DNA of 23,374 nucleotides from a virus (Duplodnaviria; Heunggongvirae; Uroviricota; Caudoviricetes), in IMG/VR virus record IMGVR_UViG_3300032156_000002, positions 73,023 to 96,396 of that record. One strand, 5' to 3'. A program made the translations under genes and the position numbers. The notes under the pieces were generated by a model, which did not search any database, was not told the origin of the DNA, and worked only from the letters and a program-made list of their open reading frames with translations. Below are positions 10,623-23,374 of this stretch, one piece after another. How positions within the stretch are numbered: position 1 is the first letter of the stretch; every line of letters begins with the position of its first letter.

Positions 10623-11576
10623 ATGACCTATCCGCGTCAGGAGTTTCTCAACTTCCAGCCGGACGAGACGGACAGGTGGAGTGCGGTCGAGCCGGTCCTG
10701 CGGTTCGACGACCTCGCGCCGCGCGACGACAGCCTGCCCATAACGCTCTCCGTTATGATTGCGGCGAACGACTACCGCAAGGCACAGATACTTCGCACCC
10801 TTGAGTGCTTGGCCCGCCAGAAGTTCCGAGACATCGAAGTTCTTGTGGCGCAGATTGGCGGCAATCAGGACCTCGGGGAGGCGTGCGCGAGATTCTTGCC
10901 GTACCTGCGAGTGCGCTTTTTCAAACTCGAACGCGAGGGTTTCGCCGCCGACCCGAGCCGCGGCTTCCGGGCGATGATACCCGAGGCGCAAGGCGACTAC
11001 ATCGCGGCCATGCAGGCCGAGATTATGCTGACCGAGGAGGCGTGCGGTGTGCTGGTACGCTCGATGCGCGACCCGATGCTGGGGTCCACTTTCCATAGTT
11101 GCCTTGACGCTTCGCCGCTTGAGGACTGGTTGAGCAAAGAGAAATTCATCGTCCTGCGCATCGGCTTCCTCGATGGACAATGCCAACAGGCGCTCGACCA
11201 GACGGACTGGCACAGTCACGTCCGAGAAATCGAGCAGATATACTCCTACAACCGGCACGGAGAAGGATTGTCAAACCGCGGCAACACCTTCTGGCGGCCC
11301 GCTATCCATTTCCCGTGGTGGTTCGTCGGTTGCGCGAAGCGCGAAGCGGGCATCTGGAAAGATATGCCCGAGATGCTTGGGCACGCGATGATTGACTTCT
11401 ACTTGATGAACTACCGCATCTCCTACGGCTACGTGGACATTCTGCCGCCGGGGTTGTACGGCTACCATCAGTACCACTTTCGCACGGCTGTCGGCATGAA
11501 GGACGAGGAGCCGACCATGCGCCTTGCGTTACAGGAAAGGGCGCGAAGGGAGAGGGGAGGCGAGCAGGTCGAATGA
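10623..11576 (+). CDS. GT-A fold (GT2-like) glycosyltransferase with an atypical metal-binding motif
   Basis: LSVMIAANDYRKAQILRTLECLARQKFRDIEVLV is a GT2 N-terminus. GDYIAAMQAEIML occupies the position where DxD is expected. Confidence 0.65.
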   Translation: MTYPRQEFLNFQPDETDRWSAVEPVLRFDDLAPRDDSLPITLSVMIAANDYRKAQILRTLECLARQKFRDIEVLVAQIGGNQDLGEACARFLPYLRVRFFKLEREGFAADPSRGFRAMIPEAQGDYIAAMQAEIMLTEEACGVLVRSMRDPMLGSTFHSCLDASPLEDWLSKEKFIVLRIGFLDGQCQQALDQTDWHSHVREIEQIYSYNRHGEGLSNRGNTFWRPAIHFPWWFVGCAKREAGIWKDMPEMLGHAMIDFYLMNYRISYGYVDILPPGLYGYHQYHFRTAVGMKDEEPTMRLALQERARRERGGEQVE

Positions 11577-12409
11577 GGATTGCCATTGCTGGTTTCCGGG
11601 GGAGGCTTGGGTCGTGGCTGTTCGAATCTGGCGGACCCGACATCTTTGCGCTGGACGTGGACTGTGCGGACCCGCATGCGGTTGGTGAGTGCATCCAAGA
11701 GTCCAAGCCCGATGTGATTATCAATTGCGTTTCGTGGACCAAGGTGAACGAGGCGGAGGACCCGGCCAACCGGGAGGCCGTGATTCGCGCGAACGTTCGT
11801 GCACCCGGCGTCCTGCGGCGCGCCTTCGGCGGCTACCTCATCCAACTCTCCTCGGGTTTCGTGTTCCCCGGCACGCCCCTGCCGCGCGTCATCGAGTACA
11901 ACGAGAACGCCAAGACCAACCCCGTCAACTTCTACGGATTTTCAAAACTGGGGGGCGAGGCGGCGGCCCGGCTAGGCAATGGGCCGACACTGGCGGTCCG
12001 AACGCTCGACCTGTTCGGGCCGGTGGCCATTCCCGGCAAAGAGGATTTCGTGCAGGGCGTGGTGCGCATCCTGCGGTCCGGTCAACCATTTCCCACGCGC
12101 CCGTTCTACATGCGCCAGCCGACGTACATCCCTGAACTTGCGCGGGTATTGCTCGGCATTGCCAGATGTCAGAATCCAATCACGGGGATTCTTCACCTTG
12201 CCGGGTGGCCCGCCACGGATGCGCGCCACTGGGCCGAGGCCGTGGCCGATGCCTATGGTCTGCCCAAGGATGGCATCTGCGGAGGTTATGAGCCGAAGGT
12301 GCCCCGCCCGTTCGGCGCGGTCCTGAACGTCAGCAAGGCGAAGCACCTCGGAATCAATATGATGTTCCCGACGGACGCTCTCAATATCATGGCGCGAGGT
12401 CAACAGTGA
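11573..12409 (+). CDS. rmlD: RmlD-like NDP-4-keto-6-deoxyhexose reductase (extended SDR)
   Basis: Motifs MRIAIAGFRGRLG, IINCVSWTKVNEAE, LIQLSSGFVF, PVNFYGFSKLGGE (YxxxK) and QPTYIPELA. ATGA overlap with the upstream gene. Confidence 0.8.
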   Translation: MRIAIAGFRGRLGSWLFESGGPDIFALDVDCADPHAVGECIQESKPDVIINCVSWTKVNEAEDPANREAVIRANVRAPGVLRRAFGGYLIQLSSGFVFPGTPLPRVIEYNENAKTNPVNFYGFSKLGGEAAARLGNGPTLAVRTLDLFGPVAIPGKEDFVQGVVRILRSGQPFPTRPFYMRQPTYIPELARVLLGIARCQNPITGILHLAGWPATDARHWAEAVADAYGLPKDGICGGYEPKVPRPFGAVLNVSKAKHLGINMMFPTDALNIMARGQQ

Positions 12410-13110
12410 AGTTCAGTGTCGTGCTCCTTACCTTCAACAGCCCCAGCCGCTTCGAGAAGCGCATGGACGAACTGGCCTACTGGACGGCTAACCGCGACGC
12501 GGAGATTGTGCCCGTGCTCAACGGACCCGTGGACCGCGAGTACAGCCTTTTGCTTGCGCTGGCCATCTCGCGGAGCGCACACGAGCCGGGCGCGCCCTTC
12601 ATCCGACCCATCGCCATTCCGATAAACCACGGCTTCGCCGGAGGCATGAACATCGGCGCGCGCTCGACCGCGGGCGAGATTATCATTCTCCTCAGCGATG
12701 ATGTGCGCATTGCCGGTGACTTCCTTACCCCAATCGAGGCGACCCTGAGGCGCGGCTCGCTGTCCATCGTCTCCAAGACCATTGTCAACTTTCCGGGCGG
12801 ATGGAATCAGTTTGGCGATGTTGTTGTGGCCTACCCGGACGGGTCACTGGTGGCCATGCGCAAGTCAATATGGCAGGCACTCGGCGGTTTCGACGAGCAA
12901 TTCACACCCGCGGGTTTCGAGGACGTGGACCTCGGGTATCGGGCCGCGCAACTCGGCTTCCCGCTGGTTGCACTTCCCAACCTGCCGGTGGACCATAGCG
13001 CGCCGGGCCAGTCTGCGCCCTACAACAAAGAACGGTTCGACCGATGTGTTCGGATGAAGGCGTTGTTCGCCGCGAAGTACGGATTAGAGAACGTGCCTGC
13101 GGTTCCGTAG
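12406..13110 (+). CDS. GT2 family glycosyltransferase
   Basis: Motifs KFSVVLLTFN, NHGFAGGMNIGA, IIILLSDDV, GGFDEQFTPAGFEDVDLGYRA. GTGA overlap. Confidence 0.85.
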   Translation: MKFSVVLLTFNSPSRFEKRMDELAYWTANRDAEIVPVLNGPVDREYSLLLALAISRSAHEPGAPFIRPIAIPINHGFAGGMNIGARSTAGEIIILLSDDVRIAGDFLTPIEATLRRGSLSIVSKTIVNFPGGWNQFGDVVVAYPDGSLVAMRKSIWQALGGFDEQFTPAGFEDVDLGYRAAQLGFPLVALPNLPVDHSAPGQSAPYNKERFDRCVRMKALFAAKYGLENVPAVP

Positions 13111-13119
13111 GAGAGGGTC

Positions 13120-22114: not shown

Positions 22115-22122
22115 GGTCTGAC

Positions 22123-22992
22123 ATGCGAATCTACTACGTCAACGACACGCATTTTCATTCGGGGTCCGAGGCGGTCTCCGCGGCCATCCGGGCCAAACTG
22201 CAATCGCAGGGTCACGAGATTGTCGCCGTCGCGCACCGGCCCAGTGGTCCCGACCCGGCCCTCATGGGCGGGTGCGATGCCATGGTCGTCAACGGCGAAG
22301 GCACCTTCAAAGGAGAGAAGTACAACTTCGAGCCACAGAGACAAGAGGCCATTCTGTTCGGGATGCGCGAGGCCAAGCGACGCCACCTGCGGGTGCACTT
22401 TATCAATGCCACGTGGTGCGACATGACTCCGGGCTGGGGACCGATACTTGCGTCGCTCGACGAAGTGGCCGTGCGCGAGGTGGCCAGCCGGAACGAGATG
22501 CTGACCAATCAGGGCGTGAGGCCCGCTATCTATCCCGACATGAGTTACTACGCTCCCGTCGAACGGACCGGTGCGTATACCAACGCAGGCAAGGTCATTG
22601 TCGGGGAAATCTACCCGCACAACTTTCCCGATGGCCTCTCGGAGGCAAATCCGATGCTTCACGGCCTGCCGAGTGTTCCGCTTCGGGCAGGTTGGTCTTG
22701 GAGCCGGATTGTCAATGAACTCCGGGGCGCGCTCGTCTACATCACCGGCCAGCATCACGGTGTGTACGCCGCATGCCGCGCGCGCGTTCCCTTCGTATTC
22801 TGCAAGGTCAATACGCACAAGGTCTCGGGCCTATTCGAGTGGGCCAACGTGAACATTCCGACGGTCAGACGGGGCGAGGATATTCTTGACTGCCTTGCGT
22901 GGGCATTGGAGAACCGCGACGTTTACGAACGGCTATTCGATTTCCTCGACAGGGCGATACCATGGCCCGGTATTCTACAGGAGGCAAGGTGA
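22123..22992 (+). CDS. Polysaccharide pyruvyltransferase-like protein
   Basis: Motifs VNDTHFHSGS, VVNGEGT, AVREVAS, YPDMS and ITGQHHGVYAA...PF...NTHKVSGL follow the PS_pyruv_trans pattern. Confidence 0.7.
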   Translation: MRIYYVNDTHFHSGSEAVSAAIRAKLQSQGHEIVAVAHRPSGPDPALMGGCDAMVVNGEGTFKGEKYNFEPQRQEAILFGMREAKRRHLRVHFINATWCDMTPGWGPILASLDEVAVREVASRNEMLTNQGVRPAIYPDMSYYAPVERTGAYTNAGKVIVGEIYPHNFPDGLSEANPMLHGLPSVPLRAGWSWSRIVNELRGALVYITGQHHGVYAACRARVPFVFCKVNTHKVSGLFEWANVNIPTVRRGEDILDCLAWALENRDVYERLFDFLDRAIPWPGILQEAR

Positions 22993-23374
22993 GCAAGCAC
23001 AACCGAAGGCGCATACAGACTGGTCCGCAGGCGGTCCTTCCCGTGACGGACGGCGCACGCCAGTGGATGAGCGGGGGCGTCCTGATTGACGTGCTCATGC
23101 CCGTATACGGCGAATGGACGCTCGCCGAGAAGGCATACGAGTCCATCGCACCCGCGATGGAGGGTGTGGCCGAGGAGTACCGAGTCTACATTGTGGACAA
23201 CGGAACGCCCGAGTGGGTCAACCAGCAGGGCCAGAGCGTGTCGGCACTCCAACAGGCCCTCGCCTTGCGCCAGAAGATGCGCCCGCAGGATATGTTCCGT
23301 CGCCTCGAAAAGAACATCGGCTACCCCGGCGCGGTGAACGAAGCCGCGAAGCACGGACGTGCTCCACTTATCCT
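22989..23374 (+). CDS. GT2 family glycosyltransferase, 3'-truncated by the window edge (not in the ORF track)
   Basis: GTGA overlap. It translates MSKHNRRRI...LIDVLMPVYGE...YRVYIVDNGT...LEKNIGYPGAVNEAAKHGRAPLI with no stop before the window end. Confidence 0.8.
   Translation, partial: MSKHNRRRIQTGPQAVLPVTDGARQWMSGGVLIDVLMPVYGEWTLAEKAYESIAPAMEGVAEEYRVYIVDNGTPEWVNQQGQSVSALQQALALRQKMRPQDMFRRLEKNIGYPGAVNEAAKHGRAPLI

Follow-up and report, generated by a model that had tools for sequence, protein, structure and literature searches.

Here, we describe a cluster of glycan-synthesis genes that directly follows the capsid genes of an uncultured tailed phage (Caudoviricetes), in a window (the whole stretch of DNA analysed, 23,374 nt) that forms the 3′ end of the 96,396-nt linear IMG/VR viral contig IMGVR_UViG_3300032156_000002 (positions 73,023 to 96,396 of that record; contig coded G000, 79% complete by CheckV). 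The cluster runs as 16 co-oriented open reading frames (ORFs) from position 10623 to the contig end, takes up at least 13% of the contig, and includes six glycosyltransferases (GTs) together with a predicted pathway to a 3,6-dideoxyhexose. We consider it probable that these genes form a cytoplasmic line for virion glycosylation within the late structural operon of a phage with an SU10-type capsid, and prefer this reading because the enzymes appear soluble, the genes are translationally coupled, and the cluster holds a fixed place between the shell and connector genes.

Genes were assigned from Pfam, NCBIfam, and PDB-sequence matches, and the cluster reads as follows:

10623 to 11576, plus strand: GT2-family GT of GT-A type (PF00535, 24.6 bits against a cut-off of 23.3)
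11573 to 12409, plus strand: RmlD-like nucleoside diphosphate (NDP)-4-keto-sugar reductase (PF04321, E 2e-33; TIGR01214, E 8e-29, under its cut-off)
12406 to 13110, plus strand: GT2-family GT of GT-A type, a core gene of the clade (PF00535, PF13641)
13120 to 14052, plus strand: CgeB/YkvP-type GT of GT-B type (Glyco_trans_1_2, PF13524, E 1e-16)
14049 to 14471, plus strand: p140, a small protein of a clade family with invariant His and Cys residues
14468 to 15154, plus strand: class I S-adenosylmethionine (SAM) methyltransferase (PF13489, PF08241), with a probable role in sugar O-methylation
15151 to 15855, plus strand: RfbF-like sugar-1-phosphate nucleotidylyltransferase (PF00483; TIGR02623, E 5e-50)
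15852 to 16910, plus strand: NDP-glucose 4,6-dehydratase (PF01370, PF16363; TIGR01181, E 5e-55; TIGR02622, E 9e-43)
16885 to 17391, plus strand: cupin, RmlC/FdtA-like NDP-sugar epimerase/isomerase (weak PF05523 and PF00908; PDB 3EJK, E 2e-7)
17388 to 18158, plus strand: MobA-like nucleotidyltransferase-fold protein, weakly assigned (PF12804, E 3e-4, under its cut-off; no PDB sequence match)
18155 to 18628, plus strand: orf157 (start in a GTGA overlap, frame composition, and a homologue)
18501 to 19796, plus strand: RfbH/DdhC/AscC-type E1, i.e., cytidine diphosphate (CDP)-6-deoxy-4-hexulose 3-dehydrase (NF011936)
19821 to 20864, plus strand: GT4-family GT of GT-B type (PF13439, PF00534)
20861 to 22114, plus strand: GT1/GT4-family GT of GT-B type (PF00534, PF13692), starting in a 4-nt overlap
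22123 to 22992, plus strand: polysaccharide pyruvyl transferase (PF04230, 26.2 bits against a cut-off of 25.3)
22989 to 23374, plus strand: GT2-family GT of GT-A type, cut by the contig end (weak PF00535 on the fragment)

A first-pass annotation, made from the letters of the window, had listed at least 16 co-oriented glycan-cluster genes right after the capsid genes, six GTs (three GT-A and three GT-B), and a continuation past the window edge, and all of this agrees with our ORF count, with the Pfam assignments (three GT2 enzymes, the CgeB/YkvP-type enzyme, and two of the GT4/GT1 families), and with the truncated terminal GT2. Ten of the gene junctions are 4-nt ATGA/GTGA overlaps (e.g., the RmlD-like gene begins 4 nt inside the gene before it), while promoter- and terminator-like sites are not enriched over shuffled sequence, which fits a single operon as weak evidence. 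Because of these ten overlaps and the lack of excess promoter- or terminator-like sites, we argue for one operon that comprises the cluster and the major capsid protein (MCP) gene.

Functionally, the cluster appears to be directed towards an unusual deoxysugar. For the gene at 18501 to 19796, the NF011936 score is 500.7 bits, above the cut-off of 423, and PDB 3BCX is matched at E 4e-116, with the active-site histidine of ‘YPAHHIT’ and all four cysteines aligned in a C-X57-C-X1-C-X7-C spacing, as counted on the printed alignment. We take a histidine in place of the lysine that binds pyridoxal phosphate, together with C-X57-C-X1-C-X7-C as iron–sulfur ligands, to be diagnostic of E1 enzymes. Identification of this DegT-like gene as an aminotransferase, which its first-pass label ‘aminotransferase-like’ had suggested, was rejected on the strength of NF011936, 3BCX, and the ‘AHH’ plus Cys motif, all of which point to a 3-dehydrase. 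By these signatures, E1 is predicted to commit the pathway to a 3,6-dideoxyhexose. Its putative partners are less sharply defined: the best NCBIfam model for the nucleotidylyltransferase is TIGR02623 (glucose-1-phosphate cytidylyltransferase; 170 bits, cut-off 300), and the dehydratase scores 187 bits against the deoxythymidine diphosphate (dTDP) model TIGR01181 versus 147 bits against the CDP model TIGR02622, both under the cut-off. The cupin matches a PDB entry labelled ‘dTDP sugar isomerase’ (3EJK), a relative's orthologue of it matches PF00908, and the pairing of this cupin with the RmlD-like reductase suggests an ascarylose-type branch. The identity of the sugar would follow from these assignments, with the NDP-4-keto-6-deoxyglucose intermediate most likely in its CDP form.

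To place the cluster in context, related loci were collected from IMG/VR through the MCP (20 loci), from public assemblies (five), and from one informative metagenome-assembled genome (MAG) contig. The first-pass annotation had proposed a survey of glycan clusters beside the MCP, and in that survey glycan genes follow the MCP in 17/17 informative loci, at MCP identities of 47–79% and with two of the loci drawn from complete genomes (duplicates counted once: L009, L011, L012, L013, L014, L016, L017, L018, L019, L021, L022, L025, L030, L032, L033, L034, and L038, with L041 as an extra example). One further contig, L044, was left out of the count, as it carries a 43-aa MCP fragment at its edge followed by a PBP2-like gene and is probably a chimera. 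The cluster varies from 7 to 25 kb across the clade, around a recurrent core of a p147-family protein, a GT2, the CgeB-type GT, p140, and usually a GT4 and GT1 pair, while the presence of RmlD-like genes, methyltransferases, nucleotide-sugar genes, RfbH, and further GTs varies from locus to locus. Among individual genes, the GT2 at 12406 to 13110 occurs in nearly every relative, the GT4 at 19821 to 20864 has orthologues in many (38–52% identical), the first GT2 (10623 to 11576) has homologues in L014, L030, and the genome G002, and the MobA-like protein is conserved in the genomes G001 and G002.

Downstream of the cluster, five relatives carry homologues of a head-tail adaptor (phrog_442), a neck protein (phrog_5), and a tail terminator (phrog_176), i.e., the neck and tail genes that had been expected to come next. 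These relatives are G005 (complete, with direct terminal repeats (DTRs), 67 kb), G002 (complete, DTR, 112 kb), G001 (92% complete), L016, and L019, and the distance from MCP to adaptor is ~7.4 kb in G005, ~17.5 kb in G001, and ~25 kb in G002. For G001, the post-cluster genes have no direct PHROG match, and their identity as connectors rests on BLAST links to proteins of L016 and L025 that do match connector PHROGs. The truncated GT2 at the end of our contig has full-length orthologues in L025 (63 bits), G001, and G002, where the head-tail adaptor genes follow it. Connector genes are absent from the first 75 kb of our own contig and therefore must lie past its end. In two distant SU10-type relatives (L036 and L037), the MCP is followed by small, connector-like genes and no glycan genes, which is why we call the cluster an insertion and why the first-pass wording ‘inserted’ was fair. 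It follows that the glycan genes were inserted at the capsid–connector junction specifically in this clade and are not host DNA.

Gene content in and around these clusters also varies in ways that extend beyond glycan synthesis. The 25-kb glycan region of G002 (L026, 16161 to 18831) holds an LCP lipoprotein with a lipobox, an M23/SH3 peptidase, and a DUF3307 protein, and L022 (19594 to 20718) is listed with it. Nucleotide-related or mobile genes lie in or near the clusters of L034 (13910 to 14455, Nuc_deoxyri_tr2) and L038 (16408 to 17766, NUMOD3/MTES_1575 and DCD/dUTPase), and Mom-like proteins are encoded upstream in L033 (1 to 1201).

At the core of the cluster, the CgeB/YkvP-type GT is the most conserved gene, with at least 274 homologues, all on contigs of ≤118 kb and one of them named ‘Spore protein YkvP/CgeB’ in UniRef. 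Searched by tblastn against 50,697 isolated phage records, it gave 0 matches, and the core GTs together gave nothing beyond three weak Enterococcus/faecal matches, with no actinophage among them. Its usual 3′ neighbour is p140, for which we found 62 homologues, all on similar contigs, with four invariant positions (H65, C88, C90, and C116) and one, H131, that is nearly invariant. An AlphaFold2 (AF2) model of p140 is confident (pLDDT 88.7) and, compared against PDB and the AlphaFold database (AFDB) by Foldseek and by a wide VIA-align search, found no match outside its own family; the language-model (Atlas) search gave no usable lead either. Judged by these sequence and model searches, p140 appears to be specific to the phage clade. 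A predicted complex of p140 with the CgeB-type GT scored 0.24, under threshold. Also in the cluster, orf157 shows coding composition (G+C content at third codon positions, GC3, of 0.77 in its own frame versus 0.65 and 0.38 in the other frames) and has a 39%-identical homologue in the same place in L030/L031 (L030, 18275 to 18736). Its 3′ end shares 128 nt with the beginning of the RfbH gene, read in a different frame; the closest relative keeps this arrangement, which could reflect either a genuine long overlap or programmed frameshifting.

The capsid side of the junction comprises four genes:

6376 to 8187, plus strand: putative prohead protease/scaffold fusion, 603 aa, directly 5′ of the MCP in all relatives
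8259 to 9440, plus strand: MCP of a divergent SU10_MCP type, 393 aa from Met20 (family profile)
9506 to 9931, plus strand: p147-family small protein (core of ~85 aa with a GGC-CG motif), a recurrent post-MCP gene
9933 to 10619, plus strand: 228-aa protein with two ~60-aa internal repeats and a Pro/Ala/Ser/Thr-rich linker

The MCP ORF opens at 8202 and encodes 412 aa. It has no direct match in Pfam, PHROG, or PDB sequences and 0 tblastn matches in the 50,697 phage records, and an AF2 model built from 16 homologues was poor (pLDDT 44) and unusable for a fold search. We nevertheless accept the 412-aa protein as a divergent SU10-type (HK97-class) MCP, its HK97 fold being assigned from sequence, because three independent lines converge. 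First, the Atlas feature search places it at 0.98 to SU10_MCP/Phage_capsid clusters. Second, a profile of 16 family members, searched in 1.84 billion representatives, recovers two proteins with a precomputed Pfam assignment of SU10_MCP (PF17236), P0171 (E 9e-9) and, where the assignment is weak, P0159 (E 2e-17); the latter is directly preceded by terminase, portal, and Peptidase_S78 genes. Third, L038 has a Peptidase_S78_2 protein two genes 5′ of its MCP. Peptidase_S78 or S78_2 also occurs in relatives at the position of our 603-aa protein, which itself has no direct Pfam or PHROG match. The family exceeds 1433 metagenomic members, all unnamed. In L014, two tandem MCP paralogues (8627 to 9796 and 11252 to 12448, 80% and 77% identical to the window MCP) stand 5′ of the glycan genes.

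Between the MCP and the first GT2 lie the p147-family protein and the 228-aa protein. The former is encoded 3′ of the MCP, either next to it or after one or two small ORFs, in most of the relatives whose sequence continues that far (e.g., L009, 12628 to 12909, and L025, 11452 to 11712) and conserves the motifs ‘VAM.YYQ’, ‘AWV..EDV’, ‘GGC-CG’, and ‘YANE.DVR.W’; Pfam, NCBIfam, and Atlas gave no family or fold lead for it. The latter starts 1 nt past the p147 stop, behind a GGAGAGG ribosome-binding site, and has sub-threshold Pfam matches only.

We then asked what the cluster lacks. Scanned in 19-residue Kyte-Doolittle windows at a threshold of 1.6, the cluster products contain no membrane segment, as the only 19-mer at or above the threshold is the Rossmann GxGxxG loop of the dehydratase; this bears out the first-pass remark that no membrane protein was evident. 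Its companion remark, that a flippase and a polymerase were missing, could be extended by profile searches to four clade genomes (G000, our own contig, and G001, G002, and G005): Wzx/Wzy-type families PF01943 and PF04932 were not found in any of them, and neither were the priming transferases PF02397 (Bac_transf) and PF00953 (WecA-type), while controls matched in each case. The window's own cluster contains neither an LCP gene nor a hydrophobic ORF.

From its position and the solubility of its enzymes, we infer that the cluster makes a glycan shield on the particle; both the acceptor and what the particle would gain (shielding, stability, or adhesion) are likewise proposals. In such a scheme, the cytidylyltransferase-like enzyme and the 4,6-dehydratase would form NDP-4-keto-6-deoxyglucose, and the RfbH/E1 iron–sulfur dehydrase would strip the 3-hydroxyl with a reductase from the host, which we propose because the contig has no gene for E3. 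The cupin and the RmlD-like reductase would then complete an ascarylose-type 3,6-dideoxyhexose, and the six GTs, the methyltransferase, and the pyruvyl transferase would assemble a decorated hetero-oligosaccharide. Because genes for lipid priming, flipping, and polymerisation are lacking and no product is a membrane protein, we propose that this chain would be built directly on a cytoplasmic acceptor, most likely capsid or other virion proteins during assembly, whose translation from this operon would coincide with that of the enzymes. Speculatively, candidate acceptors are the MCP surface, the p147-family protein, and the 228-aa protein.

Several observations weigh against this reading. Small single-pass hydrophobic ORFs lie between the cluster genes of several relatives, and the G002 cluster region encodes the exported LCP lipoprotein and the M23/SH3 peptidase. 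Ser/Thr-rich tracts were not found in plausible virion ORFs of G000, G001, G002, L016, L019, and L025, and the MCP C-terminus has no Ser/Thr acceptor tail: it is conserved, with a consensus of ...FTGRIVTTCPVIG and no extension, and only TT/TTT occurs there. The window products show no meaningful BLASTP similarity to Che8 gp108-110 and Corndog gp35-38, the sole match being one of 54 aa between Corndog gp37 and the GT2 at 12406 to 13110 (E 7e-5) over a generic GT-A region. Lastly, an E3 (RfbI/AscD) reductase domain, PF00175, was found in none of the four genomes, with positive controls matching, and E3 is presumably supplied by the host. Thus, of the first-pass proposal that this is a probable virion glycosylation operon, the placement of the genes withstood the genomic tests that could have refuted it, while on the acceptor side no acceptor was identified, Ser/Thr tags were lacking, and the enzymes are not homologous to those of Che8 and Corndog.

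A bolder form of the proposal is possible, and we put it forward tentatively, at clearly lower confidence than virion glycosylation itself. A widespread and wholly uncultured clade of sediment and soil phages (more than 1400 MCP homologues) might wrap its particles in a strain-variable heteropolysaccharide whose 3,6-dideoxyhexose is methylated or pyruvylated, a kind of phage ‘O-antigen’. This glycan would be made entirely in the cytoplasm and begun on the capsid by a new initiating module of the CgeB-type GT and p140. Such a mechanism would be closer to that of the spore crust or of giant viruses than to that of mycobacteriophages, and no Ser/Thr tail tag would be needed.

Two alternatives, both of which we hold to be unlikely, deserve most attention. 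The first is that the glycan is built on a host lipid carrier, by way of a host priming enzyme, flippase, and ligase or LCP protein, and remodels the host envelope for superinfection exclusion or against re-adsorption to debris. 3,6-Dideoxyhexoses are classic O-antigen sugars of rfb and asc clusters, some relatives have single-pass hydrophobic ORFs in their clusters, and the lipobox LCP protein of G002 lies in the cluster region beside the M23/SH3 peptidase and the DUF3307 protein, with another LCP gene elsewhere in G001. Such LCP genes may also point to a host with a Gram-positive-type wall. However, the G001 gene (G001:C1:92099-92524) is ~24 kb from that genome's cluster, our own cluster lacks both features, none of the four clade genomes has a priming transferase, Wzx, or Wzy, and a fixed position in a late head-to-neck operon is atypical for conversion modules.

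The second, which we rate as equally improbable, is that the enzymes act in the cytoplasm on something other than the particle, e.g., host factors, injected cargo proteins, or a soluble glycoside or nucleotide-sugar sink. Solubility and the absence of export genes suit any cytoplasmic acceptor, the MCP bears no acceptor tag, and giant cargo proteins are encoded just upstream. Yet the placement after the MCP and before the connectors is invariant down to ~47% MCP identity, for which co-expression with the shell is the simplest explanation, and a set of at least six GTs plus tailoring enzymes points to a structural glycan at the surface, not to regulatory mono-glycosylation.

It is less likely still that the sugars decorate modified bases of the packaged genome and thereby help it evade restriction. 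Phage GTs can hypermodify DNA with diverse glycans (bioRxiv 10.1101/2023.12.21.572611, PMC13326640), and the nucleotide-metabolism genes in the clusters of L034 (Nuc_deoxyri_tr2) and L038 (DCD/dUTPase) would fit this possibility. Against it, a ThyA-like hydroxymethylase (PF00303) was not found in the four genomes although controls worked, the cluster sits in the structural and not the replication module, and a 16-gene pathway with pyruvylation and a dideoxyhexose goes far beyond known DNA glycans; a search of the same genomes for Tet/JBP-type proteins (PF12851) gave no match, with controls equally silent. Finally, we give next to no probability to a chimeric assembly or to the cluster being host chromosomal DNA beside a prophage remnant, since a location at the extreme end of a linear, 79%-complete contig is outweighed by even GC across the window (0.59–0.65), GC3 equally high in cluster and head genes, the absence of tRNA genes from the window, the scarcity of MCP relatives in species genomes (below), and, refuting it by synteny, the same cluster inside complete DTR genomes with virion genes on both sides, in line with the first-pass expectation that the cluster is not a host flank.

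Turning to the remainder of the contig, genes upstream of the window on the same strand include those for a portal (phrog_2662) and a large terminase (phrog_38, E 4e-82), along with a series of giant multi-domain (cargo) proteins that bear LigT and Zeta-toxin modules, and within the window a ChaB protein, the 603-aa protein, and the 412-aa protein follow in turn ahead of the cluster. In several ORFs at window positions 266 to 6446, a Gly/His-rich tag of ~20 residues repeatedly stands ahead of unrelated modules of large pre-protease proteins, and beyond the window a 938-aa ORF (G000:C1:21241-24057) has two stretches that match a nucleotide-sugar epimerase/dehydratase PHROG. By megablast, the whole window gave 0 matches to the 50,697 phage records, and the source DNA was detected in two sediment metagenome runs from two studies. 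A search for hosts through MCP relatives in 185,579 species genomes matched only four short MAG contigs of unrelated taxa (L041-L044), labelled Anaerolineae, Woesearchaeota, Bathyarchaeia, and Anoxychlamydiales, and these taxon labels are most likely binning errors.

Taken at face value, an environmental phage lineage spends 7–25 kb of its structural operon on glycan synthesis. If the virion is the target, the ‘glycocalyces’ of phages would have an ancient origin, much diversity, and a rich chemistry (dideoxyhexose, O-methyl, and pyruvate ketal groups). This would matter for how stable virions are, how they adsorb to hosts and matrices, how defence or predation systems recognise them, and how stealth phages are engineered. 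The cluster would also offer a compact, membrane-free toolkit for protein glycosylation together with a new CgeB-type GT and its p140 neighbour to characterise. To our knowledge, proof that phage particles are glycosylated is confined to a few actinobacteriophages, which employ two to four enzymes, and little evidence for other phages has been published. While virion glycosylation by phage GTs and the glycan clusters of giant viruses are already known, our literature searches gave no published account of such capsid-junction glycan clusters for phages of this kind. New here are the scale (at least 16 genes, and up to ~25 kb in a relative); the self-sufficiency, including a putative 3,6-dideoxyhexose pathway and methyl and pyruvyl tailoring; an enzyme set that is unrelated to the proven phage enzymes and centres on the CgeB-type GT and p140; the lack of Ser/Thr tags; and the constant location of the cluster, at a single junction, across a large uncultured lineage.

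Among known systems, the nearest within phages is that of the mycobacteriophages, which glycosylate their own capsid and tail tube with two to four phage GTs (PMC12619734, PMC12363180, PMC11256854). Both systems would rely on phage-encoded, soluble GTs acting in the cytoplasm, as proposed here from genes, and in Corndog the GT genes (gp35-38) likewise lie inside the head module, just 5′ of the capsid protease gene. Freeman et al. 2023 reportedly described virion O-glycosylation for Che8 (gp108-110), Corndog (gp35-38), and Myrna. However, the mycobacteriophage systems have two to four genes, draw on host nucleotide sugars, and use C-terminal Ser/Thr acceptor tails, whereas our cluster has at least 16 genes with a deoxysugar pathway and tailoring enzymes, no such tails, and enzymes that are not homologous; the first-pass view that it is larger than the few-gene cases is thereby upheld. 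Prophage O-antigen conversion (GtrABC, Oac, Wzy-type) also employs phage-encoded glycan-modifying genes, but these encode integral membrane proteins and are morons expressed in lysogeny, in contrast to a late virion operon with no membrane protein. The CDP-3,6-dideoxyhexose pathways of Salmonella and Yersinia (rfb/ddh/asc) share with our cluster an E1 with the diagnostic motifs, a cytidylyltransferase-like enzyme, a 4,6-dehydratase, and, for the ascarylose branch, a cupin and a reductase; they differ in that here E3, Wzx/Wzy, and a priming enzyme are absent, the cytidylyltransferase and the dehydratase score under equivalog cut-offs, and the genes lie in a phage structural operon.

Beyond phages, giant viruses (chloroviruses and Mimivirus) possess autonomous glycosylation machineries (reviewed in PMC9614988). 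These viruses infect eukaryotic hosts and have double-jelly-roll capsids, whereas ours is a tailed phage with an HK97/SU10-type capsid, an independently acquired enzyme set, and a cluster integrated in the head-to-neck operon. Giant-virus clusters combine their own nucleotide-sugar synthesis with soluble GTs and decorate capsids or fibrils with unusual sugars without the host secretory pathway. Similarly, in the spore crust of Bacillus subtilis, CgeB, YkvP, and Sps enzymes place polysaccharide on an intracellular protein shell without a lipid carrier or export. There, too, CgeB/YkvP-type GT-B enzymes occur alongside rhamnose-type nucleotide-sugar enzymes, a similarity at the level of a Pfam family (PF13524) and a UniRef name, although the spore crust belongs to cellular differentiation and p140 appears confined to the phage clade. 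By analogy, giant-virus glycan clusters and Bacillus spore-crust glycosylation would seem to be the best functional counterparts of the cluster described here.

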